Position numbers and translations under genes: made by a program. This document shows, one piece after another, positions 14,129-42,064 of a DNA stretch of 64,000 nt. Under the pieces are notes generated by a model that had not been told where the DNA came from, did not search any database, and worked only from the letters and a program-made list of their open reading frames with translations. Source of the DNA: Bacilli bacterium (GTDB lineage Bacteria > Bacillota_I > Bacilli_A > RF39 > UBA660); the NCBI GenBank assembly GCA_017409785.1, contig JAFQSD010000004.1:130910-194909 (forward strand). Reading direction: 5' to 3'. Each line of letters begins with the position of its first letter. The stretch's first letter is position 1.

Positions 14129-14137
14129 GGAGGAATT

Positions 14138-15940: not shown

Positions 15941-15951
15941 GAGGTGAGGTT

Positions 15952-19726: not shown

Positions 19727-19732
19727 TTATAG

Positions 19733-20224: not shown

Positions 20225-20226
20225 AA

Positions 20227-21033: not shown

Positions 21034-21078
21034 AAAAGAAAAAAAGAATTACAAAAGAATTAAAGGGATGTGAGTTAG

Positions 21079-22470: not shown

Positions 22471-22485
22471 TAGAAAGGAGTTTGT

Positions 22486-24914: not shown

Positions 24915-24931
24915 AAAGAGGGTGATACTGA

Positions 24932-26002
24932 GTGAACGTAATAGTTTCAAATGAACAACAAAGTCAAACAGCTAATTTAGATGTCGATATAATTAAAAGT
25001 ATTACTGGAGCATATAGTTCAATTGAACTAGTAGAAATGTTTAAGAATTTCTTCTACAGTAAAATGGTTTTAGATGTAACATCTATTAAAAATTATCAAA
25101 ATATCTTAGAATATAAAACATTAGCTGATGGATTAGATCCAGATAAAATTATTTTCTTTATTCCAGAAGGAAGTAGTTTATGTACACCTAACTTTCTAGC
25201 TAAACTAGTAACGTTGGGAATATATAATTTCACAACTAATATAGATGGAGTAAAATATTTATTAAAAAAATCAAACACATTTAATGATGTAGCTCACATT
25301 CAACAAATGGGCGGTGGTGTTATTGAAGAACTTCAACAACCACCACAACCAGACCCTGCGGAACAAGGGGCTCAAACTCAACAAGGAACTTTTGTAGCTC
25401 CGGCACATCATGTTCAAGTTCAGCAAGGAAGTATGGCTAGAACAATAAAAATTGGTGTACGTAATGTTACAGACCATGCAGGAGCAACAAGTTTGATATA
25501 TATGTTCAAAAAAGAACTTACATCAGTATTTGGTGAAAGTAACGTTGTTGCAATAGAAATTAATAAAAATGATTTTCAATTCTATAATGATAAGAATATG
25601 ATATCAACAACAACTAATGACATAAAGACAGTTATTGAAAGATATAATGGAGTATCTGTACTGTTAATAGATTTAAATGATTTTGAAGATAACACAATTT
25701 GTGATGATGTTCTATATTTATTAGAGCCAAGTACTTTAAAATTAAATAAGTTAATTAGAAAGAATAAACATATTTTTGGTAAAATAAAAGATAAAAAAAT
25801 TGTATTCAATCAAAGTTTATTAACTAGTAAAGATATAAGTGAGTTAGAATACGAAGCGGGAATCAAATCCTTCTTTAATCTACCTCCAGTTAATGATAGA
25901 AAGAAAAACGAAATAGTAACAGAATTACTTGCAAAACTTGGATTATTACAAATTACAGGTGGCAATAATTCTGGTAAAATATTTGGTCTATTTAGACGTT
26001 AA
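24932..26002 (+). CDS. TadZ/CpaE-like protein: a pseudo-receiver N-domain plus a ParA/MinD-like domain with a degenerate P-loop.
   Basis: GTG start with AAGAGGGTGA RBS. The second half has IKIGVRNVTDHAGATSLIYMF where ParA has KGGVGKTT, and VLLIDLND is a Walker-B-like box. Confidence 0.35.
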   Translation: MNVIVSNEQQSQTANLDVDIIKSITGAYSSIELVEMFKNFFYSKMVLDVTSIKNYQNILEYKTLADGLDPDKIIFFIPEGSSLCTPNFLAKLVTLGIYNFTTNIDGVKYLLKKSNTFNDVAHIQQMGGGVIEELQQPPQPDPAEQGAQTQQGTFVAPAHHVQVQQGSMARTIKIGVRNVTDHAGATSLIYMFKKELTSVFGESNVVAIEINKNDFQFYNDKNMISTTTNDIKTVIERYNGVSVLLIDLNDFEDNTICDDVLYLLEPSTLKLNKLIRKNKHIFGKIKDKKIVFNQSLLTSKDISELEYEAGIKSFFNLPPVNDRKKNEIVTELLAKLGLLQITGGNNSGKIFGLFRR

Positions 26003-26005
26003 TAT

Positions 26006-26034
26006 TTGACAAAAAAAATGATATAATGTATTAT
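26006..26034 (+). promoter_or_regulatory. Candidate sigma-A promoter (TTGACA-17-TATTAT) upstream of the pilin-like gene 26057.
   Basis: TTGACA at 26006-26011 and TATTAT at 26029-26034. An alternative -10 is TGATATAAT. Confidence 0.35.
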
Positions 26035-26056
26035 ATACATTGAAGGAGAGGTTTGT

Positions 26057-26377
26057 ATGTTAGAATTAGTTCAATTAGCTTCAGCATGTGGAGGATTAGA
26101 CCCACTAGTAAGTTTAGTTAAAAACGGGTTGTTCCCAATCGTATATATTATTATTCCAATTGCATTACTTATTTATGCAGTTATCGATTTTGGTAAGGCA
26201 GTAATTGCAAGTGATGAAAAAGAAGTTAAAGCAGCACAAAGTAGATTAATCAAACGTGCAATTTATGCAGCACTAATTTTCTTCGTAGTATTCCTAGTTA
26301 AAGCAATTATGGATGTAGTTGCTAAAGGTGGAACTGGAAATACTGGAGATTGGTGGTCTTGCTGGGAATCAGTATAA
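26057..26377 (+). CDS. Two-helix hairpin membrane protein, a VirB2/TrbC-like T4SS pilin candidate.
   Basis: The 106-aa sequence ...PIVYIIIPIALLIYAVIDFGKAVIASDEKEVKAAQSRLIKRAIYAALIFFVVFLVKAIMDVV... is paralogous to the N-domain of ORF 5244 and to the C-domain of ORF 26470. Confidence 0.45.
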   Translation: MLELVQLASACGGLDPLVSLVKNGLFPIVYIIIPIALLIYAVIDFGKAVIASDEKEVKAAQSRLIKRAIYAALIFFVVFLVKAIMDVVAKGGTGNTGDWWSCWESV

Positions 26378-26469
26378 TATAGACAGTAAAATAAAAAATA
26401 GTAAATAAATTGCTATTTTTTTTTTCTTCTGATATACTTAATATGTTATAATGTATTTGGAGTGATCTT

Positions 26470-27552
26470 ATGAAAAAAAAGCAACTATTTGGTTTGATTT
26501 TATTAATGTTAATAACATTATTTATACCAAATAACATCAATGCAAAAGAGAAAAAAGTAATTTGTGAATATCAATATAAAAACCAAGAATTAATTTATAC
26601 AATTGATAATAAAGTAATTCTTCCATTTGAGGATGGAAAAGACAATTGGTATCATGGACAAGATTTTAAAAATAACTATTTGAAAAATTCAAAAATAAAT
26701 AGCAATACTTATGTATGTCCAACAATAACAATTGAAGAATCTGATAGTTTTATAACAATATTTAATAATCCAAGAAGTGAAGATGAGTGTAGTGGAGTAT
26801 GTACAACTCTATCAGCAATAAACTATCAGTCAAGTAAAAATATAAATGTTAAAAAAGCAGTAGATACTACTGCTATTAGTAGTGTAGGAATTTATAATCA
26901 AGATAATTACTTTATTCCATATTTTAGATTATTAGAAGACGGTACAAAAGAATGGTCAGTTGATGGAATTAATTACAAGCCAGTAACTGAAAAAGTAGAA
27001 AATGACAAACTAGAAATAAGTTTAGATAAGTCATTAATTGAAGAAATTTATCAAGATAAAAACTTAAATAAAAATGTCACAATATATAGAAATGTAAAAA
27101 ATGATAATAACAAATATATCTATTTATTAGCAACACATAAAGTATCTGGTTACAATTTAAATGACGGACAAGAAACTAGTGCTAGAGCATATCATGCTGC
27201 ATATGGTGACCCAGACATAGATGAGTGGTTAGAAGATTATAATCAAAACCAAGATTGTTCTGGAGATAATAGTATTCTAGGAAGTTATAACGACCCTAAC
27301 TCAGTAGCATACTTCCTACAAATAATATTTAATTGGTTAAAACTTATTGGTCCATTTATAGTTATAGTTATGAGTGGTATAGATTTTGCTAAAGTAATCG
27401 TAATGGGTGATGATGATGGAATGAAGAAAGCTCAAACAAAATTAATCATCAGATTAATTCTTGCAGCATGTTTATTCTTCTTACCAGATTTAATCAAAGC
27501 ATTCTTAGACTTATTCAATATTACATCAAGTGGAATCTGTGGATTACAATAG
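26470..27552 (+). CDS. Secreted protein with a ~270-aa ectodomain fused to a C-terminal pilin-like two-helix domain.
   Basis: Signal peptide MKKKQLFGLILLMLITLFIPNNINA. The C-terminus GIDFAKVIVMGDDDGMKKAQTKLIIRLILAACLFFLPDLIKAFLDLF matches the ORF 26057 family. Confidence 0.45.
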   Translation: MKKKQLFGLILLMLITLFIPNNINAKEKKVICEYQYKNQELIYTIDNKVILPFEDGKDNWYHGQDFKNNYLKNSKINSNTYVCPTITIEESDSFITIFNNPRSEDECSGVCTTLSAINYQSSKNINVKKAVDTTAISSVGIYNQDNYFIPYFRLLEDGTKEWSVDGINYKPVTEKVENDKLEISLDKSLIEEIYQDKNLNKNVTIYRNVKNDNNKYIYLLATHKVSGYNLNDGQETSARAYHAAYGDPDIDEWLEDYNQNQDCSGDNSILGSYNDPNSVAYFLQIIFNWLKLIGPFIVIVMSGIDFAKVIVMGDDDGMKKAQTKLIIRLILAACLFFLPDLIKAFLDLFNITSSGICGLQ

Positions 27553-27580
27553 TTTAAAGCAAAAAAGAGGTGATTAGTAA

Positions 27581-29653
27581 ATGACAGATTATATGACAGC
27601 CAATACGATAAACGATCTATTCAGAAGTTTATTCGCATTATTAGATAGAGCAGCATATATGATGCTTGGATGGATGTATGAAATCTTGTTCAATGTAGCA
27701 AGTGCAGACATTTTTGCCAATGATACAGTTCAAAAATTTTATGGACGTATACAAATGATCATTGGTGTATTCATGCTATTCAAATTAGCTGTTTCAATTA
27801 TTCAAGGTATAATTAATCCTGATACTTTTACAGATAAAAAGTCAGGATTTTCGCACATAATTTCAAGAGTAGTTTTTGCTTTAATAATGTTAACCGTGTT
27901 AACTCCAATTAATATTCCAGGAGCAAGAAGTAGTTATGAAATTAATCTTAACAATAACGGATTATTATTCGGAACATTATATGAATTACAAGATAGAATT
28001 TTAGAAAATAATACATTAGGTAGATTAATATTAGGTACAAATGATGGAACTACTGGAAGTGGTAGTGGTGGTACAAATACAGCGCTAACGCAAGCTGAAA
28101 AGTTAAAAAAATCATCTAATATGTTTACCGCAACTATTCTTAAAGGATTCATTAGAATCAATATGAAAGAGTCTGGCGGAATGGATGAAACAAATCCAGA
28201 TGATAGAGTTTGTGACTATATTGATCAAGAAGTACTTGATGTATATGCAGATTTAGAAACAAGTCCAAATCAATTATTATCATTAGTTAATGCTAGCTGT
28301 GAATATCAAGGAAATGATGGATTCTTCGATACAATGGCAGCATTCTTTACAAGATTATTTACAGGTGATAGATACGTATTTGCATATATGCCAATTATCT
28401 CAACAATTGTAGCAGCCGTATTTATCTATATTTTACTAGGAGAAATAATTACAATTGCAATTCGTTCAATAAAACTTGCAGTATTAAGACTTTTAGCACC
28501 AATCCCAATTATTAGTTATATTGATCCAAAATCAGAAAAAGATGGTGCATTTGCTTCATGGACTAAATCATTAACATCAACTTATTTAGAATTATTTATC
28601 CATTTAGCAGTAATTTATTTCGTAATATTCTTAATCCAAGACATGATTGTTAATGGATTAGTAATCAATACAGGAACAGGTGTTATTGGAGTAATATCAT
28701 GTATCTTCATCTGGATAGGATTATTCTTCTTCGTAAAACAAGCACCTAAGTTCATTAAAGATATCCTTGGAGTAAAAGGTGGAAGTTCAAATGTTGGACT
28801 TGCCGGATTACTTGGAGGAACAGCAATGCTTGCTGGCGGTGGAGGAATGTCAGGATTTGCTCTTGGAGCAATGCAAGGTTTCGATGCTGCAGTACAAGGT
28901 AATAATCAAGGAAAAGCAGCACCACTTGGTGCAATTTGGACACAAAATAGCAATAAAATGGCCCAAATCAGAACTGGAGACAAAGATGCTCAAGGTGGAT
29001 TATGGGGACAAGCAATGGACCGTTTCAACTACGATACACGTGAAGCTCAAGCTAGAAGACTTGGAATCGGTTCAAACGATGTTGCCGATGCTAAATACAT
29101 TAAAGATCAACGTGAAGCTGAAGCAAATAATGCTAAACGTAACCTAGACTTTGCTGCACGTGAAGTAGAATATGCAAAAGCTGAAATGGAAGCTGCAAGA
29201 TACGAACTTGATAGAACAGCTGAAGGTTCAACAGAACGTACATCTGCAGAAGCTAGATATAGAGCTGCTCAATCTAGATATGCAGATGCTCAGACAGGAT
29301 ATACAACAGCATATACACAAAACGAAGCATACCAAGAAGCATATGGAAAAGCTTCATCTGCATACGAAAAAATGGATAAAGACAGAGCTCAAATGGGTGT
29401 TGGTCCACGTATCAGTGATAAACGTGGAGATCGTGCAACTTATAGATCACCACATAAAGCAGATGGTACATACACTCCATACACAGCTGATGAAACAGGA
29501 AGAAATGCACCAAGAAGTGAAGATGATATTAAAGGAACAATTACAGGACATAGTAATGACCTTAAAAACTTCAGTGGTACAACAGATGACTCTGGTATCG
29601 GTTCTATGGGTGGAGGAGCCCGTGGTGGTGGACCAGGACCAGGACGTCCATAA
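27581..29653 (+). CDS. VirB6/TrbL-like polytopic T4SS channel protein with a long hydrophilic C-terminal tail.
   Basis: At least 6 TM segments with large loops (TcpH/ConG-like). The C-terminal ~250 aa are A/Q/R/Y/E-rich coiled coil ending in GGGARGGGPGPGRP. Confidence 0.55.
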   Translation: MTDYMTANTINDLFRSLFALLDRAAYMMLGWMYEILFNVASADIFANDTVQKFYGRIQMIIGVFMLFKLAVSIIQGIINPDTFTDKKSGFSHIISRVVFALIMLTVLTPINIPGARSSYEINLNNNGLLFGTLYELQDRILENNTLGRLILGTNDGTTGSGSGGTNTALTQAEKLKKSSNMFTATILKGFIRINMKESGGMDETNPDDRVCDYIDQEVLDVYADLETSPNQLLSLVNASCEYQGNDGFFDTMAAFFTRLFTGDRYVFAYMPIISTIVAAVFIYILLGEIITIAIRSIKLAVLRLLAPIPIISYIDPKSEKDGAFASWTKSLTSTYLELFIHLAVIYFVIFLIQDMIVNGLVINTGTGVIGVISCIFIWIGLFFFVKQAPKFIKDILGVKGGSSNVGLAGLLGGTAMLAGGGGMSGFALGAMQGFDAAVQGNNQGKAAPLGAIWTQNSNKMAQIRTGDKDAQGGLWGQAMDRFNYDTREAQARRLGIGSNDVADAKYIKDQREAEANNAKRNLDFAAREVEYAKAEMEAARYELDRTAEGSTERTSAEARYRAAQSRYADAQTGYTTAYTQNEAYQEAYGKASSAYEKMDKDRAQMGVGPRISDKRGDRATYRSPHKADGTYTPYTADETGRNAPRSEDDIKGTITGHSNDLKNFSGTTDDSGIGSMGGGARGGGPGPGRP

Positions 29654-29676
29654 TATAAAGAGGAGTGTGATACATA

Positions 29677-30003
29677 GTGCGTAACTATTTAATTCCTGCA
29701 AACACAAAAAGAGGGAAATTAATACTAGGAATGTTTAAACCGTTTGATTTAGTGTTATTTGGAACAGGAATTCTTATTACATTTATATTTCTAGCATTCA
29801 TGCCGCTAAGCTCAACACTTGTAACAATACTTGTGTTGAGCCCAGCGCTTGTTACTGGATTCTTAGTTTTACCTGTACCTTATTATCACAACATACTAAA
29901 TATCCTAATTGAAATGTATGAATTTATAACAACAAATCAAACATATAGATGGAAAGGTTGGTGTTTTAGAAGTGGCGAAAAAGTCATCAAAAAACGTAAG
30001 TAG
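29677..30003 (+). CDS. Small 2-TM membrane protein (VirB3-like candidate).
   Basis: GTG start with AAGAGGAG RBS. 108 aa with two hydrophobic helices, immediately upstream of the VirB4 ORFs. Its 3' end overlaps ORF 29972 by 32 nt. Confidence 0.35.
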   Translation: MRNYLIPANTKRGKLILGMFKPFDLVLFGTGILITFIFLAFMPLSSTLVTILVLSPALVTGFLVLPVPYYHNILNILIEMYEFITTNQTYRWKGWCFRSGEKVIKKRK

Positions 30004-30532
30004 TGGTTATACTGAAGATTGGCTACCAGTCCGTGGTATTCAAAATAACATGATAATTACTAGAGATAATTACAAAGTAACAGGAGTTAAAATATCTCCA
30101 AAAAATATTTTTATCTTGGACCCAATTGCTCAAGATAATATGTTAATAAGTTTAAAGAATTTTTATAACACAATTGATTTTGAATTCTGGCTAGTAGTTG
30201 CTGATAGACCGGTAGACATCTCTGTATATCTATCACAAATGCAATTACTATATAATGAAGCACATACACCAGCAATTAGAAAATTAATTATGCAAGATAT
30301 TAATAAAGGACATACTTTTATCAATAATAGTATTGTTGATACTGAATATTATTTCTTATTCAAGTCAAAAGACCCTGATCTTTTAGCCAAAAGAGTAAGA
30401 ATGATGATTAATGGTCTTGCATCATGCGGATTAGCTGCTGCTCAAGCAAGTAATTCGGATTTAAGAATAGTATTAGATAACTTCCTAAACGGAGGAAGTA
30501 CAACAGAGTTTGGGGTGGTGATGCCAGTATGA
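29972..30532 (+). CDS. VirB4 N-terminal domain-like protein (a separate ORF coupled to the VirB4 ATPase).
   Basis: 186 aa, GTG start. Its stop overlaps the ATG of the VirB4 ATPase (ATGA at 30529-30532). Hydrophilic, with no TM segment. Confidence 0.4.
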   Translation: MAKKSSKNVSSGYTEDWLPVRGIQNNMIITRDNYKVTGVKISPKNIFILDPIAQDNMLISLKNFYNTIDFEFWLVVADRPVDISVYLSQMQLLYNEAHTPAIRKLIMQDINKGHTFINNSIVDTEYYFLFKSKDPDLLAKRVRMMINGLASCGLAAAQASNSDLRIVLDNFLNGGSTTEFGVVMPV

Positions 30533-32319
30533 GTACCGGATTAAGAAGTCAATTAGCTCCAAAAGGGCTACATTTCTCACCAAGTGAGTTTTTCATAAGT
30601 GATAAGTATGCAACTATTTTAACAGTTGTATCATTTCCAAAATACATAACACCAGGTTATTTATCATCATTAACAAATATGGCAGGAATTAAAATTGTTA
30701 TTAAACATATTCCTGTTCCATATCAAGATATGGTTAAGATGTTAAATAAAGAAGTAGCAGATTTAAAAGAAAAATATCGTAATGAAAGAGACCAAACTAT
30801 TCGTGAAAGATTAAGACAAGATGCAGAAAGTTTGGAATACTTCACATCAATGATTGCAGGAAGTCAAGCAAGAAACTTCGATTTCCAAATGCATATCATG
30901 ATTGCTGCAAATACAAAAGAAGAATTAGAATTAAAGAAAATGAATGTTAAAAACTACTTAGATGCAATGGAATTAAGAGCAATTTCCCTACGTTTTGAAC
31001 AAGAAAAAGTTCTTAAATCAATGTTACCAATTTTCCCTGCTCAAGATATTGAACAAAGAATTGGAACACCAATTCCATCAGTAACAGTAGCAGCAATGTA
31101 TCCATTTATTTTCGATAGTATTAAAGACCCAGGATTATCAACACTACTTGGAGTTGATTTCTCTGGAGGAGTAATTCTATTTAATCAATTCTTATATAAA
31201 ATAAGAAAAGAACATAATAGAAATAATGCTAATATGATTATCTTAGGAACATCTGGTTCCGGAAAATCAACAGCAGCAAAATTATTACTAAGAACACATA
31301 TTAGAAATGGATGTCAAATTGTTATTATCGACCCAGAAGATGAATTTAGAGAAATTACTAGATCATTTGGTGGAGATACAGTAGATATTGGTAAAGGTGG
31401 AGAATTTGGTTTAATCAACCCACTAGAAGTAATCTTCGATGCTGATGAAGAAGAAATTAAACAAGGTATGGGATACACAGTATTAAATAGAACATTAAAC
31501 TTCTTAAAAGGTTTTATGAAATACTATAATCCATCAATTGCACAAGATGTTTTAGCAATGTTTAGTGATGTAGTTCAAGATACATATAAACGTTTTGGAA
31601 TTGACTTTGAAACAGATTTCTCAAACTTCACATCAAAAGATTTCCCAGTTTTCTCAGATGTTTATGCAACAATCAAAGGAAGACTACTTTCTATGACAGA
31701 TCAAACTAAAGAAAGAGATATCATGGAAAGACTTGAATTAGAAGTAAGACCAATCGTTAAAGAATTAAGATTCTACTTCGATGGTCATACAACATTACCA
31801 AGAGATAGTGATTTCATGGTATTTAATATTAAAGAATTAATGAATAGTGATGCAAATATTAGAAATGCCTTATTATTCAACGTCTTAAAATATGCTTGGG
31901 GAATGTGTTTAGACCCAAGTGTAGATACAGTATTATTAGTTGATGAAGCACACGTATTAATGAGTAGCAGAAACCAACAAGGTTCAGAATTCTTAGCTCA
32001 AGTACAAAGACGTGCTCGTAAATATAACACAGGAACTATTATTATTACTCAACAACCAAGTGACTTCGCTGATGAGGCTGTAATCACTGATGGTAAAGCA
32101 ATTTTCGATAATGCTTCTTACTATCTAGTAATGGGATTAAAGAAACAAGCAGTTGAAGATTTATCAAGATTAATAGACCTAAATGAAAATGAAAAAGAAA
32201 GTATCAAACGTTATTCTCAAGGAGAAGCACTATTCGTTTGTGGAAGCAGACGTATGAGAATTAACGTAGTAGTTACAAAAGAAGAATTAGATTCATTCGG
32301 CTCAGGCGGAGGATTCTAA
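30529..32319 (+). CDS. virB4: VirB4/TrbE/CagE-family T4SS ATPase (Gram-positive ConE/TcpF/PrgJ-like).
   Basis: Walker A motif MIILGTSGSGKST and Walker B motif VLLVDEAHVLM. N-terminal YATILTVVSFPKYITPGYLSSL. Confidence 0.8.
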   Translation: MSTGLRSQLAPKGLHFSPSEFFISDKYATILTVVSFPKYITPGYLSSLTNMAGIKIVIKHIPVPYQDMVKMLNKEVADLKEKYRNERDQTIRERLRQDAESLEYFTSMIAGSQARNFDFQMHIMIAANTKEELELKKMNVKNYLDAMELRAISLRFEQEKVLKSMLPIFPAQDIEQRIGTPIPSVTVAAMYPFIFDSIKDPGLSTLLGVDFSGGVILFNQFLYKIRKEHNRNNANMIILGTSGSGKSTAAKLLLRTHIRNGCQIVIIDPEDEFREITRSFGGDTVDIGKGGEFGLINPLEVIFDADEEEIKQGMGYTVLNRTLNFLKGFMKYYNPSIAQDVLAMFSDVVQDTYKRFGIDFETDFSNFTSKDFPVFSDVYATIKGRLLSMTDQTKERDIMERLELEVRPIVKELRFYFDGHTTLPRDSDFMVFNIKELMNSDANIRNALLFNVLKYAWGMCLDPSVDTVLLVDEAHVLMSSRNQQGSEFLAQVQRRARKYNTGTIIITQQPSDFADEAVITDGKAIFDNASYYLVMGLKKQAVEDLSRLIDLNENEKESIKRYSQGEALFVCGSRRMRINVVVTKEELDSFGSGGGF

Positions 32320-32346
32320 AATATAAAGTAGTAAGGTGGTGGAAGC

Positions 32347-34668
32347 ATGGCATACGAAGCAAATAGAGAAGGCGACCAAAGAGAAAACCAAATGTCTCAA
32401 GATGAACGCAACATTCAAAATAATGCAAACAACATAAGAAACGCAGCTGATGTTGCCATGGCTTCCGGTAACCCTTATGCAATGGCTGCAGGAGCAGCAG
32501 TAAAAGCTGCAGATAAACTTACAGGTGGGAAAAGTACTGAAATGGCAGGAAAAGCCCTAAATCAAGCAAATAAAATGGCTCCAGGAGGAAATCAAGTACA
32601 AAACTCATTAAATAAAATGAGCGAAAGTGGAGCAAGTGATAAAATCGGACAAGCAGCAGCCATAAAAAACGGAATGAGTAATGGTGGATCTGGAGGTGCA
32701 GATGCTGCTTCAAAAGCTGGAGAAACAGCAAATCCTACAGATAAAGCATCTTCAACTTCAAGTTCATCATCTGATTCATCAGGTGACGGATTAGGTAAAG
32801 GCTTTGGTGGTGGAAGAAAACCAAAAAATTGGTTAGATGATGGCTCTGATGAAAATAATGAGCCACAAGAGCCAACAGATACAATGTTTGAATTCCAAAT
32901 GAAACCAGAAACTAAAGCAATTATGTTGCTAGTTGCACCATTAGCAGGAATATTACTATTATTCTTTGCGATATCTGGTGCTGTAGGTGGAGGAGTTGCA
33001 GACTTCAATGATGCTCTAGGAGCAAGTGGAGCATCAGGTGGAGAAACAGGAAACATTGTATTCACAGCATCAGACCCTGATGCCCAAGCATTCTACGAAA
33101 GAATTAATAATGTAAAATTAAATATGCAAGCTAGTGGTAAAAGCGTAGACGTATTAAAAGTCGTAGCTGTTTACCACGTATTAAACGTAAATAATAATAA
33201 TTATGATTATAAATATATGACAGAGTCAGTTATCACAGATATTGCCAATGCAATGTTTAGTGGTAATGTCTATGATGAAACAACATTCAAGTTTAATTTA
33301 ACTAATGACATTTTCTATAAGCACTTCCCAAGAACAACTCAAAGTAAACGTGAATTAATGACTGAAGATGTATTTGATTATATTGATAGATATTACAGTT
33401 TCATTGGTACCGAAGGTTATGGTTGTGCTGCAGCTGGAGCATGTAATTACGATATTAAAGGTTTTTATATACCAGGCGCTGGAAATATCTCTAAACAAAT
33501 GCAAATATCAAATTTAATGGTTAGATTAATGGAATGTGGAAGTCCATATGGAAATGGAACATATGGAACACCAATTGACCAAGATATGGTTCCATTCGAA
33601 GAGTATGTAGCAGGAGTTGCATACGCAGAAGTTGGTCCAAGTGCTCACATTGAAGTACTAAAAGCCCAAATGGTTATGGCAAGAAGCTTTGCTCTTGCAA
33701 GACCAACAGGAATGGGAAATGCTCTTGGTAAAAAACTAGAACAAGAAAATAATCAATGGGTATTACAAATTTCATCATGCGTAGCCGACCAAGTATTCTG
33801 TAACATCAATGAAGGTTGTTCTTTCATGGGTGGTGGAGATGGTCAGGGTGGAATATGTCGAAGTGGACACGTTGCAGGAGCAGTAAGAACAAGAGATGCT
33901 TTAGCAGCGGACCATCAATTACGTACAGCAATGGCTGCAACAGCCGGAGAAGTATTAGTAAATGATCAAGGATATATTATCCAAACAGGCTATTTATCAA
34001 CAGAACAAAATCTTATGTCAAGCCTTGCTAATCAAGGAATGAATTATAAACAAATTCTGTTACAAGTATATAACTCAGGAAACAGAAATTATGGTGCAGC
34101 AGATATTCAAAAAATGGCTTGTAATACAGCAGGTTCTGCAAACTGTGGAACAGCATCATCTGGACCATACGCAAGTTGGAAACAATATGAAGGTCCATGG
34201 ACAAATGTAATCTTAGGTAATAGTGGAAAAACAATTAGACAAATCGGATGTTTAGCAACATCAGTTTCAATATTAATTGCTAAGAGTGGAGTTCCAACTG
34301 TCTTAGGAGATAACTTCAACCCAGGTACATTCGTTGAATATCTAAGTCAAAATGGTGGATTTGTAAGTGGAGGAAACTTCGTATGGGCATCAGCCTCAAA
34401 AGTAGCACCATCATTCCAATTCGTTGGACGAGCTTACGTTTCAGGATATACTAAAAATCAAAAATTACAAAAACTTACAGAACTAATGAATCAAGGATAT
34501 TATGTAGTTGCAGAAGTAAAAGGTAATACTGGACAACACTGGGTAGCAATAGATGCCATCGCTGGACAAACAATCATTATGATGGACCCTGGAAGTAGTA
34601 GCACAGATATGTGGGCTCAATATGATTGGAGAAATACAAGTACTTTTGCATACTTTAAAGCGGGGTAA
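32347..34668 (+). CDS. Cell-wall hydrolase (VirB1 analog): a disordered G/S/A-rich N-terminus, a TM segment, a SpoIID/LytB-like domain, and a C-terminal CHAP-like Cys/His peptidase domain.
   Basis: EEYVAGVAYAEVGPSAHIEVLKAQMVMARSFALAR matches the SpoIID motif. The C-terminus has RQIGCLATSVSILIAKSG and GQHWVAIDAI (CHAP-like Cys and His). TM segment AIMLLVAPLAGILLLFFAISGAV. Confidence 0.55.
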   Translation: MAYEANREGDQRENQMSQDERNIQNNANNIRNAADVAMASGNPYAMAAGAAVKAADKLTGGKSTEMAGKALNQANKMAPGGNQVQNSLNKMSESGASDKIGQAAAIKNGMSNGGSGGADAASKAGETANPTDKASSTSSSSSDSSGDGLGKGFGGGRKPKNWLDDGSDENNEPQEPTDTMFEFQMKPETKAIMLLVAPLAGILLLFFAISGAVGGGVADFNDALGASGASGGETGNIVFTASDPDAQAFYERINNVKLNMQASGKSVDVLKVVAVYHVLNVNNNNYDYKYMTESVITDIANAMFSGNVYDETTFKFNLTNDIFYKHFPRTTQSKRELMTEDVFDYIDRYYSFIGTEGYGCAAAGACNYDIKGFYIPGAGNISKQMQISNLMVRLMECGSPYGNGTYGTPIDQDMVPFEEYVAGVAYAEVGPSAHIEVLKAQMVMARSFALARPTGMGNALGKKLEQENNQWVLQISSCVADQVFCNINEGCSFMGGGDGQGGICRSGHVAGAVRTRDALAADHQLRTAMAATAGEVLVNDQGYIIQTGYLSTEQNLMSSLANQGMNYKQILLQVYNSGNRNYGAADIQKMACNTAGSANCGTASSGPYASWKQYEGPWTNVILGNSGKTIRQIGCLATSVSILIAKSGVPTVLGDNFNPGTFVEYLSQNGGFVSGGNFVWASASKVAPSFQFVGRAYVSGYTKNQKLQKLTELMNQGYYVVAEVKGNTGQHWVAIDAIAGQTIIMMDPGSSSTDMWAQYDWRNTSTFAYFKAG

Positions 34669-34672
34669 TTAA

Positions 34673-35452
34673 ATGAAAAAGAAAAAAAGATATATTGTGA
34701 TATTAGCAGTTTTAGCAATTTATGTAGTAATAATGCTTCTAGTCCTTGGAAAAGATATGCTAGTAAAAAATAAAGATGAAGCAACAATTGTTGTTGGAGA
34801 TACATCAATATGGGTATATAAAGACAAGGGCTGGACAAACATTACTAATCCACAAACGATAGCCTCACTTAATTGGACTGAATATAATGTATATTTAGAT
34901 AACCAAGAATATGGAAAATATTATTTATGGAATGATGACAAATGGTATTTATTTGATAAAAATAAAAAAGCCATTCCAAGAGAAGGTACATTATTAGCAA
35001 TAAAGTCAAATTATGATATAAAAGTAAAAAATTTCACTCCGAAAAACATAAGAAATTACTATCATGTAGAAAAAGTGCTTGAACAAAATAATTTAAGTAC
35101 ATCATCTAAATATACCGTTGAACAAGAAGTATCAATAGATATAGATAATGATGGAAATAATGAAACATTTTATTTTGTAAGTAATGCCTTTTCATTAGAT
35201 TATAATCCAAGTAAAATATTCTCAATTGTATTTATGGTAAAGAATAGTAAGATTTATCCAATATATACAGATATAGCACCAAACACAACAAATAATGGGT
35301 GCAAGCCATACTTAAGTGCAGTGCTTGATGTTGATCAAGATAACATCTATGAGATGGTTATAAGTTGTGGAAAATATTCAACAGAAACACCATCAGACAT
35401 GTTATACAAACTAACAGATGATGGTTTCAAAATTGTGATTTCAAATCAATAA
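34673..35452 (+). CDS. Bitopic membrane protein (VirB8/TcpC-like candidate) of unknown function.
   Basis: N-terminal TM segment MKKKKRYIVILAVLAIYVVIMLLVLG followed by an extracytoplasmic beta-rich domain. Located between the hydrolase and the coupling protein. Confidence 0.3.
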   Translation: MKKKKRYIVILAVLAIYVVIMLLVLGKDMLVKNKDEATIVVGDTSIWVYKDKGWTNITNPQTIASLNWTEYNVYLDNQEYGKYYLWNDDKWYLFDKNKKAIPREGTLLAIKSNYDIKVKNFTPKNIRNYYHVEKVLEQNNLSTSSKYTVEQEVSIDIDNDGNNETFYFVSNAFSLDYNPSKIFSIVFMVKNSKIYPIYTDIAPNTTNNGCKPYLSAVLDVDQDNIYEMVISCGKYSTETPSDMLYKLTDDGFKIVISNQ

Positions 35453-35513
35453 ATAATGACAGTTATAAAAAGTTAAGTTATAATAAAAAAGAAAAAAGAA
35501 AGGAAGTAGTAAT

Positions 35514-37853
35514 ATGAAACTTAAATTTCGTGCAGACCCAGAAGATTGGATGATATTTGGTATATTTGCAGTTGCATTATTGTACGTTATTGCAATTGGT
35601 GTAGTAAATCTAGCATCATTCGCATCAGATGGAACCTTATCAGGGTTAAATCCTTTTCCTGCGTTTAGCACAGAACATATAACAACAACATTAGTATTAT
35701 ATTTCTTAACACTTGGTGGTCTATTCGTAAGTGTTAGTTCATACTTTTTTGAAAGAGAAAAAGGTTTTGGTCTAACAGCCGATAAAAAAGACAAAGGATA
35801 TTCAAGATGGGCTAAAGATAAAGAAATCAAAGAAGAATTAAAATGTGTTAAAATTCAACAAAAAAATTCTAAAGCCGCAGGTATTCCAATTATCTTGAAT
35901 AAAGAAGAAATGTGGGTAGACGACAGTGAATACCACTCATTAGTAATCGGAGCTACTGGGTCAGGTAAAACACAAGGTATTGTATTCCCACAAGTTAATA
36001 GTTTAGCTAAAGCTAGAGAGTCAATGATTATTACCGACCCTAAAGGTGAAATCTATGAACAAACAAGTTTAATGTTACGAAAAAGAGGATATCAAATCTT
36101 ACTTTTAAACTTCCGTGATCCACAAAACGGTAATGCATGGAATCCATTATCATTACCTTATAAAATGTACAAATCAGGAAATCAAGATAAAGCAATCGAG
36201 TTATTAGACGACTTAGCATTGAACATTCTATATGATGATTCAAATAAAAATGCTGACCCATTCTGGGAGAAAACATCAGCAGACTACTTTTCTGGAGTAG
36301 CTCTAGGATTGTTTGAAGATGCTAAAGAATCAGAAATTAATATTAATAGTATTTCCTTAGCAACAACAGTTGGTGAAGAAAAATTTGGTGGTTCAACATA
36401 CATCAAAGAATACTTTGCAGCTAAAGACCAATCAAGTGCAGCTGCAATCAATGCATCAAGTACAATCATGGCACCATCAGAAACAAAAGGAAGTATCCTT
36501 TCAGTATTTAAACAAAAAGTTAAATTATTCGCATCACGTGAAAATTTAAGTGAAATGTTATCACATAGTGATATCGATTTAGAGAGTATTGGTGCAAGAC
36601 CAACTGCCGTATTCATCGTTATTCAAGATGAAAAGAAAACATATCACTCATTAGTAACAATTTTATTAAAGCAAATATATGAAACACTAATTTCTACAGC
36701 ACAAAAGAATGGTGGAAAACTACCAGTAAGAACTAACTTCATTCTAGATGAGTTTGCCAACATGCCACCATTAAAAGATGTTACAACAATGATTACTGCC
36801 GCACGTTCACGTAGAATTAGATTTACAATGATTATTCAAAACTTTGCACAATTAGATGGTACATATGGTAAAGATGATGCCGAAACAATCAGAGGTAACT
36901 GTGGTAACATAATTTACCTAATTACAACAGAACTTAAAGCCTTAGAAGAAATTTCAAAAATGTGTGGTGAAGTAAAATCTAAGAAAGATGATAAAACTGC
37001 CTCAACACCACTTGTTACAGTATCAGACTTACAACGTATGAAACAATATGAAACAGTAATATTAAGAATGCGTAAACAACCATTCAAAACAAAACTTACA
37101 CCAAACTGGCAATTAGATTGGGGAATAAAATATCCTAATGCCAAGTATCCAATACGTAAGAAAGTAGAAGTTGATACTTTTGATATTAAAGAGTTTGTTA
37201 AAGATCAAAAGAAGAAAAAGTTATTAGAAATGATGAATGGATCAGATGATGCTAAAAAAGAGGTTATGTCTAAACTACCTCCAGCAGATTTCATGAAAAA
37301 AGATCCACTTCCATTTGATAAACCTGCAGAAGCAGCAAGAATTCCTGACTTCTTAACAAGAGGGCCTATCGAACCAGAAGAAAGAAAAGTTATGGGTGGC
37401 GGAAGAGTATCTGCTCCAGCAAGACCACCAGTTTATGAAGAACCAATATCTAAACCACCAGTTGATGATGATTTGGGATTTGATGTAGACGAGTTAGTAA
37501 AGAAAATTGATGCTAAAATTGCTGAACTTGAAGAAGAAGAAAGACGCAATAAAGCAGGAGCAACTGCAACACCAGCAACTAAGCCACAACCAATTATCAA
37601 TAAGCCAGTTGCAGTACCTAAACAACAACCATTACCAACAGAGACACCAAGTTCTGATGGTGGCGCAGTTTCAAGTATTGATGAATTCTTAAGTAAAGCA
37701 CCAGTAGCTGAAACAACAATGCCAAAGATTAAACCTTTAGAAGAAAAAGTAGTCGAACCAATTAATAGTGTTGTCAAACCTAAAGACAACTTATCATTAT
37801 CAGATGAAGAAAATGATGATGATGATTTCTTTGATGACTTTTTTGATAATTAA
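35514..37853 (+). CDS. virD4: VirD4/TraG-family type IV coupling protein with a long disordered acidic C-terminal tail.
   Basis: Two N-terminal TM segments. Walker A motif VIGATGSGKTQG and Walker B motif NFILDEFANMPP. The C-terminal ~250 aa are P/A/K/E-rich and end in EENDDDDFFDDFFDN. Confidence 0.75.
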   Translation: MKLKFRADPEDWMIFGIFAVALLYVIAIGVVNLASFASDGTLSGLNPFPAFSTEHITTTLVLYFLTLGGLFVSVSSYFFEREKGFGLTADKKDKGYSRWAKDKEIKEELKCVKIQQKNSKAAGIPIILNKEEMWVDDSEYHSLVIGATGSGKTQGIVFPQVNSLAKARESMIITDPKGEIYEQTSLMLRKRGYQILLLNFRDPQNGNAWNPLSLPYKMYKSGNQDKAIELLDDLALNILYDDSNKNADPFWEKTSADYFSGVALGLFEDAKESEININSISLATTVGEEKFGGSTYIKEYFAAKDQSSAAAINASSTIMAPSETKGSILSVFKQKVKLFASRENLSEMLSHSDIDLESIGARPTAVFIVIQDEKKTYHSLVTILLKQIYETLISTAQKNGGKLPVRTNFILDEFANMPPLKDVTTMITAARSRRIRFTMIIQNFAQLDGTYGKDDAETIRGNCGNIIYLITTELKALEEISKMCGEVKSKKDDKTASTPLVTVSDLQRMKQYETVILRMRKQPFKTKLTPNWQLDWGIKYPNAKYPIRKKVEVDTFDIKEFVKDQKKKKLLEMMNGSDDAKKEVMSKLPPADFMKKDPLPFDKPAEAARIPDFLTRGPIEPEERKVMGGGRVSAPARPPVYEEPISKPPVDDDLGFDVDELVKKIDAKIAELEEEERRNKAGATATPATKPQPIINKPVAVPKQQPLPTETPSSDGGAVSSIDEFLSKAPVAETTMPKIKPLEEKVVEPINSVVKPKDNLSLSDEENDDDDFFDDFFDN

Positions 37854-37870
37854 TAGAAGGAGATTTGCTT

Positions 37871-39088
37871 ATGTCAATGAATTTTAAAGTAGAAGGCGAA
37901 AAAGACAAAGAAAAAGTAGCCGATGAATTAGATGAAGTAGTAGATGAATACGAAGAATTTGAAGAAGTAGAAACAAGTTCATCATCAAGTAGTAAAAGCG
38001 ATGATAAAAAAGGTCTTGTTAAACTATTATCTATACTTCTAGGGGTTATAATAGTGTTTATTTTAGTAATGTTCCTATTAACTTCATGTACATCAGGTAC
38101 AAAAACATATGAAGAAATGGAAGCATTAATGGTAGAGGCAGCAGAGTCATATTTTGCTGATCATAACGAAAACTTACCTAAAAAAGATGGTGGAACACAA
38201 ACTATCGACGTATCAGTACTAGTTGCAGAAGGATATATGAAGGACTTATCTAAATATAATAGTGCAATATGTACAGGAACTGTAAAAGTTCAAAAATCTG
38301 GAAGCACATATGCTTATACACCAAACTTAAATTGTGGTGAATCATATGCTTCAGTAGAATTATCTGATAAAATTAAAGACGATAATAAAATAGTTAGTTC
38401 AGGATATGGATTATATAATAAGAATGGAAATTATGTATTCCGTGGTGAAACAGTAAATAACTATGTTCAATTAGATAATGCAGTATGGAGAGTTGTTAAA
38501 ATTACTTCTAGTGGTAATACAGTAATTATCTTAGATGAACCACTACCAATGACATCACCATATGATAATCGTTATAATGAAGTAGCAAACTACAAGTCAG
38601 GAATTAATAACTATTCTTCAAGTAGATTAAAAGAAAAATTATTAGAAGAATATAACAAAGAAGAATCATTCCTAAGTGATAACGATAAAGCAAAAACAGA
38701 TACATTTAATATTTGTTCTGGAGCACGTTCATTAACTGAAACAGGTGTAGAACAAGCAGTTGAATGTAAATTACAAGAACAAAATCAAAAAGTAGGATTA
38801 TTAACAGCAGCAGATTACATGAATGCAAGTGTTGATGCAGGATGTACAACAGTAGCAAGTAAGAACTGCCAAAACTATAACTACTTAAATGGTCCAAAAG
38901 CTGAGTGGTGGACATTAACTCCATCTAAAACTAATACATATTTAGCTTATATGGTTAGTATCAATAATGGAATTAAAGAAACAGAAACATATAACTATGC
39001 AGCATTAAGACCAGTTGTTTACTTAAACTCTAATGTATTATACAAGAGTGGTACAGGTACAGAAACTGATCCATATATAGTAAAATAA
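37871..39088 (+). CDS. Membrane-anchored surface protein: acidic cytoplasmic N-terminus, TM segment, and an extracellular domain sharing repeats with ORF 14138.
   Basis: First ATG at 37871 with an AAGGAG RBS (the ORF-track start at 37865 is TTG). Motifs NYVQLDNAVWRVVKITSSGNTVIIL and ALRPVVYLNSNVLYKSGTGTETDPYIV parallel the repeats in ORF 14138. Confidence 0.5.
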   Translation: MSMNFKVEGEKDKEKVADELDEVVDEYEEFEEVETSSSSSSKSDDKKGLVKLLSILLGVIIVFILVMFLLTSCTSGTKTYEEMEALMVEAAESYFADHNENLPKKDGGTQTIDVSVLVAEGYMKDLSKYNSAICTGTVKVQKSGSTYAYTPNLNCGESYASVELSDKIKDDNKIVSSGYGLYNKNGNYVFRGETVNNYVQLDNAVWRVVKITSSGNTVIILDEPLPMTSPYDNRYNEVANYKSGINNYSSSRLKEKLLEEYNKEESFLSDNDKAKTDTFNICSGARSLTETGVEQAVECKLQEQNQKVGLLTAADYMNASVDAGCTTVASKNCQNYNYLNGPKAEWWTLTPSKTNTYLAYMVSINNGIKETETYNYAALRPVVYLNSNVLYKSGTGTETDPYIVK

Positions 39089-39116
39089 GAATCTATTCAA
39101 TAGATTCTTTTTTTTT
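39089..39116 (+). terminator. Strong rho-independent terminator closing the accessory block.
   Basis: GAATCTAT-TCA-ATAGATTC (8-bp stem) followed by T9. Confidence 0.7.
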
Positions 39117-39142
39117 CATCTAATACTATAGAGGTGAATAAA

Positions 39143-39436
39143 ATGAATAGTATAGATATAGAAAAACTACTTGAACTTCTAAACAATAAATCAATAAATA
39201 TAATTGATATCAGAACAAAGTATGAGTATATGCTTAACCATATACCTACATCAAAAAATATTGATAAAATTCTTTTAAGAATAGCACCAGAAAAATATTT
39301 TAATTCTAAAGAAATATATTATATTTATTGTCAGTCAGGATATTCGAGTAAAGCCTTAGTTGAGTATTTAAACACACTAGGATATAATACTGTAAACATT
39401 AATGGTGGATATAATAATTACTTGTTAAGAAAATAG
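39143..39436 (+). CDS. Rhodanese-like domain protein.
   Basis: Active-site Cys in IYCQSGYSSKA. ATG at 39143 with a GAGGTGA RBS (the ORF-track start at 39134 is GTG). Confidence 0.6.
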   Translation: MNSIDIEKLLELLNNKSINIIDIRTKYEYMLNHIPTSKNIDKILLRIAPEKYFNSKEIYYIYCQSGYSSKALVEYLNTLGYNTVNINGGYNNYLLRK

Positions 39437-39470
39437 AATTATAATATAATAAAACAAGAAGGTGATAGTA

Positions 39471-40049
39471 GTGACAACACTTACTGAAATCATAGAAACC
39501 TGTACTGAATTAATCCAAAAAGGTGGTTTTTTAATGGGGTTCTTTCTAATTTTAATAGAAGCCTTTATCCCAATATTACCATTAGGAGCCTTTGTAACAT
39601 TAAACATTAATGCCTTTGGTACATTTCCAGGTTTACTTATCTCTTGGAGTGCTTCAGTAATTGGTAGTTACATTATGTATTTATTATGTTACTATGTATC
39701 AAATAAGATAATATATAAATTCATAAAAGAAAAAACAAAAGAAAAGATAATAGAAAAAACTACCCACTTTCAAAAAATTAAACTAACCTCATTAGTTTTG
39801 ATAATAACCTTACCATTTACACCTTCATGTTTTATTAATCTTCTTGCTGGTATATCAAACGTATCAAAAGAAAAATATATAATATCTCTCATAATAGGAA
39901 AAGTATTTAATATCATCTTTTGGGGATATATTGGTATGAGTTTAATTGAAAGTTTAACTAATATTAAAGCAATTATATTTATTATAATAATCTTATTAAT
40001 TGCTTATTTAATTTCAAAAATAATATCAAAAAAATTTAAAATTGACTAG
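39471..40049 (+). CDS. DedA/TVP38 family membrane protein.
   Basis: Multiple TM segments with a DedA-like GxxxM/GxxxG core (PILPLGAFVTLNINAFG). Start is ambiguous: GTG at 39462 or GTG at 39471 with an AAGGTGA RBS. Confidence 0.55.
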   Translation: MTTLTEIIETCTELIQKGGFLMGFFLILIEAFIPILPLGAFVTLNINAFGTFPGLLISWSASVIGSYIMYLLCYYVSNKIIYKFIKEKTKEKIIEKTTHFQKIKLTSLVLIITLPFTPSCFINLLAGISNVSKEKYIISLIIGKVFNIIFWGYIGMSLIESLTNIKAIIFIIIILLIAYLISKIISKKFKID

Positions 40050-40063
40050 AAAGGAAGAACTTT

Positions 40064-41146
40064 ATGGACTACATAATAATAATTTTATTAATAATAATTT
40101 TAATACTTGGAGTTATATCTCTATTTAAAAATATAAATGAAAGTAATATTACAGAACGTCTTGGTAAATTAGAACTAAGTATGATGAAAGAAATGGGAGA
40201 TTTCAAAACAGAGTTAAGTCGTAATATGAATAAAGACTTTACAGACCTAAATGAACAATTAGAACGAAGACTACTAGCAATTAATGAAAAAGTAAATACT
40301 CGTTTAGATGAAAACTTTGAAAAAACAAATAAAACATTTACAAATGTTATTGAGCGTTTATCAAAAATAGATGAAGCTCAAAAGAAAATAGAAACTTTAT
40401 CAACAGATATAGTAAGTCTACAAAGTATTTTAACTGATAAAAAAACTAGAGGTATCTTTGGAGAAGTAAATCTTAAACATATTCTTACAAGTGTTTTTGG
40501 TGAAAAAAATGATAATATATTCAGACTACAACATACCCTATCAACAGGAGTTATAGCTGACTCAGTTGTCTTTGCACCTGAACCTTTAGGAACAATTGCT
40601 ATTGATTCCAAATTCCCATTAGAGCACTATCAACTAATGGTTGATAAAAGCCTAACTCAAGATATGCGTGATAACTATGAAAAAATGTTTAAACAAGATA
40701 TGAAAAAACATATTGATGCTATCAGCAGCAAATATATAATACCTGGAGAAACAGCAGATCAAGCAATTTTATTCCTTCCAGCAGAAGCAATCTTTGCAGA
40801 AGTAAATGCATATCACCAAGATATAATAAATTATGCCTATAAAAAACGTGTATGGATAACATCACCAACTACCTTAATTTCAACACTTACTGTAGTAGAA
40901 ATGATTATTAAAAATATGGAACGAGATAAATATACATCTGTTATCCATGAAGAATTAAATAAATTAGGATTAGAATTTGCCAGATACAAAGAACGTTGGG
41001 ATAAACTATCTAAGAGTATCCAAACAGTAAATAAAGATGTAGAAAATGTTACAATAACTACTGATAAAATCTCTAAAAAATTCGAAGCAATTAATAAAGT
41101 TGAAGTAGAAGTAGTAAAACAATTAGAACTACATGAAGAAGAATAA
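40064..41146 (+). CDS. rmuC: DNA recombination protein RmuC.
   Basis: N-terminal TM segment, a coiled coil, and a C-terminal RmuC nuclease-like domain (RGIFGEVNLKHILTSVFGE...IDSKFPLEHY...TSPTTLISTL). Confidence 0.7.
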   Translation: MDYIIIILLIIILILGVISLFKNINESNITERLGKLELSMMKEMGDFKTELSRNMNKDFTDLNEQLERRLLAINEKVNTRLDENFEKTNKTFTNVIERLSKIDEAQKKIETLSTDIVSLQSILTDKKTRGIFGEVNLKHILTSVFGEKNDNIFRLQHTLSTGVIADSVVFAPEPLGTIAIDSKFPLEHYQLMVDKSLTQDMRDNYEKMFKQDMKKHIDAISSKYIIPGETADQAILFLPAEAIFAEVNAYHQDIINYAYKKRVWITSPTTLISTLTVVEMIIKNMERDKYTSVIHEELNKLGLEFARYKERWDKLSKSIQTVNKDVENVTITTDKISKKFEAINKVEVEVVKQLELHEEE

Positions 41147-41170
41147 GAAAGTTTTATACTTTCTTTTTTT
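41145..41170 (+). terminator. Rho-independent terminator after rmuC.
   Basis: AAGAAAGT-TTTAT-ACTTTCTT followed by a T-run. Confidence 0.6.
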
Positions 41171-41203
41171 GTATATAAAAAGATCTAGTGCATAAACTTT
41201 ATT

Positions 41204-42057: not shown

Positions 42058-42064
42058 ACTACAA

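Follow-up and report, generated by a model that had tools for sequence, protein, structure and literature searches.

The window analysed here is a stretch of 64,000 nucleotides from a Bacilli bacterium (GTDB lineage Bacteria; Bacillota_I; Bacilli_A; RF39; UBA660; GenBank assembly GCA_017409785.1, contig JAFQSD010000004.1, positions 130,910 to 194,909 of the forward strand). At 32347-34668 it carries a gene for a predicted cell-wall hydrolase of 773 aa, in which a SpoIID-type region and a papain-like cysteine peptidase domain follow a single membrane anchor, and which lies among genes of a type IV secretion system (T4SS). Positions are numbered from the first letter of the window. The gene and its parts are as follows.

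32333-32342, plus strand: Shine-Dalgarno-like AAGGTGGTGG, strong, 4 nt before the ATG; read from the sequence
32347-34668, plus strand: hydrolase open reading frame (ORF) of 773 aa, including the stop codon; ORF call and homologues
32407-32676, plus strand: conserved Ala/Asn/Gly/Lys-rich N-terminal segment, aa 21-110, presumed cytoplasmic; alignment A1
32677-32916, plus strand: variable Ser/Gly/Asp/Lys low-complexity linker, aa 111-190; column identity
32917-32988, plus strand: sole transmembrane segment, aa 191-214; hydropathy
32992-33411, plus strand: conserved six-helix membrane-proximal domain, aa 216-355; AlphaFold2 (AF2) model and conservation
33439-34131, plus strand: SpoIID-like lytic-transglycosylase region, aa 365-595; profile and fold matches
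33586-33960, plus strand: Pfam SpoIID match, aa 414-538; PF08486
33628-33630, plus strand: codon of E428, the predicted catalytic glutamate; 4rwr alignment, published motif and conservation
33778-33819, plus strand: Cys-rich insert C478-x2-D481-x3-C485-x5-C491, role inferred; conservation
34159-34665, plus strand: papain-like cysteine peptidase domain, C39_2-like, aa 605-773; AF2, Foldseek and conservation
34249-34251, 34537-34539 and 34585-34587, plus strand: codons of the predicted catalytic triad C635, H731 and D747; conservation

The hydrolase gene and its homologues

The gene is packed tightly between its neighbours, with a gap of 27 nt upstream, on the VirB4 side, and of 4 nt downstream. 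An earlier note on this DNA, made from the sequence alone, had given the ORF at exactly these coordinates. Full-length homologues were found in at least 450 clusters at 90% identity. When 1.84 billion representatives were scanned exhaustively with HMMER, profile relatives fell into 1222 clusters of 50% identity at E ≤ 1e-3, and into 216 at E ≤ 1e-30. Intact homologues were present in at least 242 species genomes when one genome was scanned per species. Because full-length homologues abound across clusters and species genomes, the ORF is a real, selected gene and not a chance reading frame. An identical protein is held at NCBI (MBQ2910598.1) under the title 'SpoIID/LytB domain-containing protein [Bacilli bacterium]'; automatic annotation had already recognised the SpoIID domain, and nothing beyond it.

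Neighbourhood comparisons used 80 retrieved species loci (L001-L080). All 80 of the hydrolase-bearing loci listed came from uncultured gut metagenome-assembled genomes (MAGs), animal or human, with labels that include Bacilli bacterium, 'Mycoplasma sp. CAG:877', uncultured Tenericutes/Mollicutes, Candidatus Faecimonas, Erysipelotrichaceae and Tenericutes UMGS. The family had no match in 50,697 phage genomes or in IMG/VR viral contigs. Among 72,556 plasmids only the C-terminal domain was matched, on pXO16-like plasmids, and the rest of the family was not.

The SpoIID-type region

A SpoIID-like peptide, EEYVAGVAYAEVGPSAHIEVLKAQMVMARSFALAR, had been quoted in the earlier note as the mark of a SpoIID-family module. 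It lies at aa 418-452, and the module was recovered by hidden Markov model (HMM) search: PF08486 matched the hydrolase at 47.7 bits (gathering threshold 23; E 2.6e-12) over model positions 10-96 of 97, and matched 28/28 aligned homologues. When the family profile was compared with the PDB, SpoIID of B. anthracis (4rwr) was matched at E 3.7e-5. This alignment pairs FEDYVAGVAYAE with MEEYVTGVVASE and places the family consensus vpFedYvaGvayaeiG opposite LPMEEYVTGVVASEMN. Foldseek searches of the PDB with the AF2 model of aa 216-600 ranked SpoIID 5i1t and 4rwr first (probability 0.99) and the SleC lytic transglycosylase after them, with modest scores.

The catalytic glutamate of SpoIID lies within the motif GVVxxEM, as E101 in C. 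difficile and E88 in B. subtilis (PMC6934232; PMC6635528). The hydrolase motif G423-V-A-Y-A-E428-V (GVAYAEV) matches this motif and stands opposite GVVASEM of 4rwr. The glutamate whose absence was to count against a SpoIID assignment is thus present as E428; it was kept in 109/115 diverse relatives sharing 50% identity or less and was invariant in the 28-sequence alignment. R446 was kept in 112/115. The Cys-rich insert coincides in position with yCxdxxHCQ, the zinc motif of clostridial SpoIID (PMC6221140; PMC6934232), and its residues were conserved in the same set (C478 98/115, D481 104/115, C485 113/115, C491 111/115). A metal or disulfide site is plausible from this pattern.

The cut-offs of both TIGR02669 (full SpoIID/LytB domain) and TIGR02870 (sporulation SpoIID equivalog; 33.9 vs 234.75) were missed. 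On these profile scores the region is concluded to represent a diverged catalytic core and not an orthologue of sporulation SpoIID. SLT, lysozyme and glucosaminidase domains gave no match in the hydrolase with Pfam profiles, TIGR profiles or fold search. The protein is therefore analogous to known T4SS hydrolases by position and predicted function, and the glycosidase modules are not homologous.

The C-terminal cysteine peptidase domain

Residues 605-773 were modelled as a compact alpha/beta domain with a predicted local distance difference test score (pLDDT) of 94.8. Its Cys, His and Asp were kept in nearly all of 144 diverse representatives (C635 143/144, H731 142/144, D747 142/144). The best PDB match in Foldseek was a 'putative C39-like peptidase' from B. 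anthracis, 3erv (E 1.7e-4). Further PDB folds were streptopain (SpeB), the C39 domain of PCAT1, interpain and Tse1, a peptidoglycan amidase of type VI secretion systems (T6SS); ComA was also matched. In a viral structure library the top matches were a siphovirus protein labelled 'Peptidase' (E 9.7e-5) and, from a cyanophage, a multidomain protein labelled 'Lysozyme'. PF13529 (Peptidase_C39_2) was found in 4/28 homologues (best E 4e-5), and the hydrolase itself did not match it at E ≤ 1.

The domain had been described in the earlier note as CHAP-like. A papain-like fold with Cys, His and Asp was borne out, and CHAP itself was not. CHAP (PF05257) matched 0/28 homologues at E ≤ 0.01, there was no CHAP structure among the 50 PDB fold matches listed, and true CHAP domains occur alongside the cysteine peptidase domain in the longer relatives P0169, P0180 and P0185. 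CHAP was ruled out by profile, fold and this co-occurrence. As judged from the model and the conserved residues, the domain is best described as a predicted papain-like Cys-His-Asp peptidase nearest to the C39_2 group, in which its membership is borderline.

A domain sharing 30% identity occupies the N-terminal half of a 434-aa protein of pXO16-type B. thuringiensis plasmids. This protein (8905-10209 of L081, ON016099.1) is called an N-acetylmuramoyl-L-alanine amidase in one record. It has no Pfam match, and a glucosaminidase-domain protein is encoded three genes upstream of it.

It is improbable, though worth weighing, that glycan cutting is correctly assigned and that the C-terminal domain is no peptidoglycan peptidase, serving instead as a regulatory or dimerisation module or as a C39 protease that matures T4SS components. 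Its best folds include two C39 leader peptidases, PCAT1 and ComA, as well as 3erv, which is uncharacterised, and pilin-like and sortase/Ig-like surface proteins encoded upstream are possible maturation substrates. There is also a precedent for regulatory accessory domains: the CHAP and LytM domains of PrgK had no hydrolytic activity in vitro and down-regulated the glycosidase (muramidase) domain (PMC11323569). Against such a role, the near-invariance of the triad across diverged representatives argues for catalysis, and the domain is paired interchangeably with SpoIID or glucosaminidase modules. Its occurrence in the plasmid protein annotated as an amidase, near a glucosaminidase gene, and its fold matches to Tse1 and to phage lysin-type proteins speak on the same side.

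N-terminal tail, membrane anchor and helical domain

The first 200 residues had been described in the earlier note as a disordered G/S/A-rich N-terminus. This holds for aa 111-190, where column identity was 21%, length differs among homologues and a poly-Ser/Gly run lies at aa ~111-160. It does not hold for aa 21-110, for which mean column identity to the window residue was 59%. The conserved segment had no Pfam or PDB match, and no signal peptide was found in the tail of aa 1-190. The single membrane segment of the same description was confirmed: one strong hydrophobic segment spans aa 191-214, with a mean Kyte-Doolittle hydropathy of 2.8 over 19 aa from aa 191.

Between this segment and the SpoIID region lies the conserved helical domain of aa 216-355 (~140 aa), which had been overlooked. 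Its pLDDT in the AF2 model was 76-96 as means of 10-residue blocks, and the mean over aa 216-600 was 86.5. No significant structural relative of the helical domain was found by fold search. Matches to Mcl-1/Bcl-2-like bundles had E > 1 and were rejected as noise. A ColA_N match in the hydrolase was likewise rejected (18.4 vs a cut-off of 27). The short linker of aa 592-600 has an invariant cysteine at each end.

Module swapping in the hydrolase slot

Three distant relatives, P0222, P0169 and P0267, occupy the same slot, each after the same 596-aa VirB4. P0222 retains the transmembrane segment, the helical domain and the C-terminal peptidase, and has an FlgJ-type glucosaminidase in the place of SpoIID. 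P0169 is composed of VanY, CHAP, SpoIID and the C-terminal domain, and P0267 of SpoIID, M23 and C39_2. These architectures are direct evidence of module swapping in a T4SS hydrolase slot. They are likewise direct evidence for the view that SpoIID stands in for the usual glycosidase: P0222 carries a glucosaminidase on the same scaffold in the same slot.

In 120 of the best 150 representatives of 50%-identity clusters the SpoIID-type and cysteine domains occur together, directly abutting in 113 of the 120. The recruitment of SpoIID had been called unusual in the earlier note; the glucosaminidase of P0222 upholds this for the slot, and within its own clade the SpoIID architecture is the norm and no oddity. 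The slot of one T4SS lineage thus takes glycan cutters of no fewer than two unrelated folds, the SpoIID type and the FlgJ glucosaminidase. The peptidases in it vary as well, among C39-like domain, CHAP, M23 and VanY.

The surrounding T4SS gene cluster

The hydrolase gene directly follows a split VirB4 gene and is followed, two genes downstream, by VirD4, in a same-strand array. The neighbouring genes are as follows.

26470-27552, plus strand: pilin-like protein; context
27581-29653, plus strand: VirB6/TrbL-like polytopic membrane protein; TrbL_4 (weak) and pLS20_p028 family
29677-30003, plus strand: small membrane protein of 108 aa at the PrgI/VirB3 position; assigned by position
29972-32319, plus strand: VirB4 ATPase in two overlapping ORFs, 29972-30532 and 30529-32319; NF045975, AAA_10 and P-loop_TraG
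34673-35452, plus strand: membrane-anchored protein of 259 aa at the PrgL/VirB8-like position; co-conserved
35514-37853, plus strand: VirD4-type coupling protein; T4SS-DNA_transf and NF045973

The VirB4 ORFs, of 186 and 596 aa, overlap by 4 nt and match model positions 92-276 and 295-891 of NF045975 (VirB4_plasma), the VirB4 family of mycoplasma integrative and conjugative elements (ICEs), which was the best family. The split was kept in 72-74/80 species loci and, being conserved, is no sequencing frameshift. VirD4 matched T4SS-DNA_transf at 199.5 bits and NF045973 (conju_CD1115) at 306 bits (cut-off 250). At aa ~530-779 it has a Pro/Glu/Lys/Asp-rich low-complexity tail of ~250 aa, ending in an acidic DDDDFFDDFFDN motif. 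The equivalent of the 108-aa gene in L083 gave a weak match to PF26592 (PrgI_like).

Cluster order (24459 to 42065) was collinear in ~70/80 species loci, and T4SS neighbours were present in every one of the 80 loci whose DNA reaches far enough. The T4SS genes on both sides of the hydrolase (VirB6/TrbL-like, PrgI-like and split VirB4 before it, VirD4 after it) agree with its description in the earlier note as a VirB1 analogue of a T4SS. We take the gene order of pCF10 to be PrgH-PrgI-PrgJ-PrgK-PrgL...PcfC, by which the hydrolase occupies the PrgK slot.

The 259-aa protein lay beside the hydrolase in 80/80 loci. It has an invariant DxDxDGxxE-like motif (D156, D158, D160, E164), and a profile of 33 sequences, examined for a PrgL/VirB8-like partner, had no PDB or Pfam match. 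Its PrgL/VirB8-like identity is a guess from position.

This strict co-conservation would also suit an effector and its immunity protein: the T4SS would deliver the hydrolase as a lytic effector, antibacterial or aimed at the recipient, and the 259-aa protein would confer immunity. Tse1, an amidase effector of the T6SS, has a fold similar to that of the C-terminal domain, and as no relaxase or other DNA-processing gene was detected in the window, the system may secrete proteins. Even so, such an effector is very unlikely. An internal membrane anchor together with a long N-terminal tail typifies hydrolases that reside in a T4SS, not effectors that are secreted; PrgK, TraG and CwlT likewise come after VirB4; and neither a secretion signal nor an immunity fold could be recognised.

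The cluster also bears on whether the hydrolase could be a housekeeping or sporulation-type SpoIID/LytB homologue, active in septum or engulfment remodelling and merely located among T4SS genes. SpoIID-domain proteins do remodel septa in non-sporulating bacteria (PMC6635528), Spore_YunB and sigma-70-family genes lie in the window, and the locus is chromosomal and apparently vertically conserved. These points are opposed by the missed sporulation equivalog, by the tight packing between VirB4 and VirD4, by module swapping in the style of T4SS hydrolases, including a glucosaminidase on the same scaffold, and by the T4SS neighbours of every locus, among the 80, with enough DNA. A housekeeping role is accordingly given very little weight.

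Directly upstream of the T4SS genes, at 12575-24194 (plus strand), lies a Tad-like pilus and surface-protein cluster. It encodes an immunoglobulin (Ig)-like surface protein, a sortase, DUF5411, RcpC/CpaB and a T2SSE-type ATPase, and also several proteins without a family match, one of them of 985 aa. At 5244-6113 (plus strand), 27 kb from the T4SS cluster, a 289-aa protein has a T4SS_pilin/pLS20_p028-like N-terminal membrane part fused to an NlpC/P60 endopeptidase. It adjoins MltG/YceG (3472-4548) and may be a second T4SS-linked wall hydrolase.

Predicted function of the hydrolase

The hydrolase is probably the wall-opening subunit of a Gram-positive-type T4SS, a functional counterpart of PrgK, TraG, CwlT and TcpG, with a predicted bitopic layout. 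The N-terminal tail of ~190 aa would lie in the cytoplasm, followed by one transmembrane helix, with the remainder outside the membrane in the order helical stalk domain, SpoIID-type core (E428) and terminal Cys-His-Asp peptidase (C635, H731, D747). Tethered beside VirB4, VirB6 and VirD4, the enzyme would cut a local hole in the peptidoglycan through which the channel could span the wall. Docking to the ATPases and to the channel may fall to the N-terminal tail and the helical domain. Since the window contains MltG/YceG and NlpC/P60 genes, the host has a wall to cut.

The two enzymatic modules may divide the work in cis. The cysteine peptidase would first detach or cleave stem peptides ('strip'), and the glycan so denuded would next be cleaved by the SpoIID domain ('cut'); the additional VanY, CHAP or M23 modules of relatives would perform the same peptide-stripping step. 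In B. subtilis and C. difficile, SpoIID acts solely on glycan strands from which the SpoIIP amidase/endopeptidase has removed the peptides (PMC6221140; PMC6635528), and by analogy the fused cysteine peptidase is inferred to supply peptide removal. Taken by itself, this division of labour is tentative, and its chances are put at somewhat under even.

Several observations weigh against the proposed function or parts of it. The SpoIID fold matches were modest (E 0.03-0.17, TM-score 0.2-0.3), and TIGR02669 scored 47.6 against a cut-off of 83.3, over model positions 5-103/270 only. The positive-inside rule was uninformative for the topology. Leader-peptide proteases (PCAT1, ComA) and 3erv, of unknown function, are among the nearest folds of the cysteine domain, and its peptidoglycan substrate is for that reason only putative. 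SpoIID of Waddlia attacks intact peptidoglycan too (PMC6635528), so prior stripping may be unnecessary. The silent CHAP and LytM domains of PrgK (PMC11323569) indicate that accessory domains need not be catalytic.

Comparison with known systems

The architectures of PrgK (pCF10), TraG (pIP501), CwlT (ICEBs1) and TcpG (pCW3) that serve for comparison are in part general background. Like these proteins, the hydrolase is encoded right after VirB4, within the shared order VirB6-VirB3-VirB4-hydrolase-(VirB8-like)-VirD4. It also shares an N-terminal membrane anchor and a modular ectodomain with a glycan cleaver and one or more peptidase domains, as predicted here. It differs in that the glycan module is SpoIID-type and not SLT/lysozyme-like or FlgJ glucosaminidase, and in that the cysteine peptidase is C39_2-like and not CHAP or NlpC/P60. 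The predicted cytoplasmic tail of ~190 aa and the helical stalk domain are extra, and the host cluster is chromosomal, with no relaxase detected in the window. Part of the architectures compared was taken from PMC11323569.

With SpoIID (B. subtilis and C. difficile; PDB structures 4rwr and 5i1t) the hydrolase has in common the Pfam SpoIID match, a GVVxxEM-type motif and a Cys-rich insert at the clostridial zinc-motif position. Like SpoIID, whose partner in engulfment is the SpoIIP amidase, it is membrane-anchored and partnered with a predicted peptide-removing activity. Unlike SpoIID, it is recognisable in the catalytic core alone, with TIGR02669 and TIGR02870 missed, and belongs to a T4SS context and not to the sporulation DMP complex. 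The partner is fused in cis and is a cysteine peptidase in place of a SpoIIP-type amidase.

Classical C39 domains cleave double-glycine leaders, not peptidoglycan. Peptidase_C39_2 and 3erv offer the closest likeness for the C-terminal domain, as the best structural match, by PF13529 in several homologues and by the same Cys...His...Asp order; the differences are that the hydrolase itself falls below PF13529, and that the substrate of 3erv is not known.

Mycoplasmas need no wall hydrolase. The present cluster resembles Mycoplasma ICEs in that NF045975 is the best VirB4 family, and differs from Mycoplasma and Patescibacteria systems in belonging to a gut Bacilli lineage and in having kept a wall hydrolase. 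With the T4SS of Patescibacteria it has in common a monoderm-type, chromosomal system in small-genome bacteria, with no relaxase detected (PMC12102498).

No published SpoIID-type T4SS hydrolase was found in the literature on SpoIID with T4SS, VirB1 or conjugation, or on RF39 with T4SS. The nearest mention was a passing remark on a 'SpoIID-like' domain in polyvalent proteins, which cites PF07486; we take this not to be the SpoIID family. The hydrolase is a real but moderate variation on the known theme of Gram-positive T4SS wall hydrolases. These enzymes are understudied, and PrgK was reportedly characterised in detail only in 2024. To our knowledge, SpoIID is alone among glycan cleavers in depending on peptides having been stripped first, and from this dependence a clear, testable prediction of inter-domain cooperation follows. 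The fusion also takes the SpoIID fold into biology outside sporulation and cell division.

Chromosomal setting of the T4SS

Pfam scans of 59 window ORFs (about 57 of the 65 with at least 120 aa, the others being mostly nested in or antisense to longer ORFs) gave neither a relaxase nor an integrase domain. No att-like flanking direct repeats were found around the cluster, and the sole tRNAs in the window lie 20 kb from it. The flanks are housekeeping genes: RuvX, MltG and GreA upstream, and RmuC, tryptophanyl-tRNA synthetase (TrpRS), trigger factor and Lon downstream.

The T4SS cluster (24459-42065) and the RmuC and TrpRS genes, which stay adjacent, kept a collinear arrangement in ~70 species, all uncultured gut Bacilli. 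Median identity across loci was 86% for RmuC, 80% for TrpRS and 84% for VirB4. The correlation of identity between T4SS proteins and flanking genes was weak and noisy (rho 0.03-0.63), with a concordant gradient in the five closest loci only. The synteny fits vertical inheritance of a chromosomal T4SS. It is short of proof, as an ancient site-specific ICE could mimic this pattern and could be the alternative.

In Patescibacteria, chromosomal and mostly relaxase-less T4SSs of MPF-FATA type have been described, and a role other than conjugation was proposed for them (PMC12102498). A bolder view, held here as doubtful, is that the hydrolase is the wall-breaching enzyme of a vertically inherited, relaxase-less core T4SS that was co-opted beyond conjugation. 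It would then amount to a SpoIIP-to-SpoIID machine in one polypeptide, possibly zinc-dependent (C478/C485/C491). The clade concerned would be small-genome gut Bacilli (Bacilli bacterium, 'Mycoplasma sp. CAG:877', Tenericutes UMGS, Ca. Faecimonas). Being syntenic, chromosomal and apparently relaxase-less, the cluster points to a possible co-opted secretion system in these gut Bacilli, which are abundant and uncultured.

Further genes were noted towards the end of the window. A 259-aa sigma-70-family protein is encoded at 56215-56994 (plus strand), followed by a Spore_YunB protein at 57262-57978 (plus strand); both genes are of sporulation type, in a lineage whose MAGs frequently bear Mycoplasma or Tenericutes labels. 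Twelve tRNA genes form an array at 61854-63040 (plus strand), which is followed on the opposite strand by an MvaI/BcnI-family restriction endonuclease gene (63091-63858, minus strand). GC and AT skew change sign in the last 2 kb of the window, in the region of the tRNA array and the endonuclease gene.

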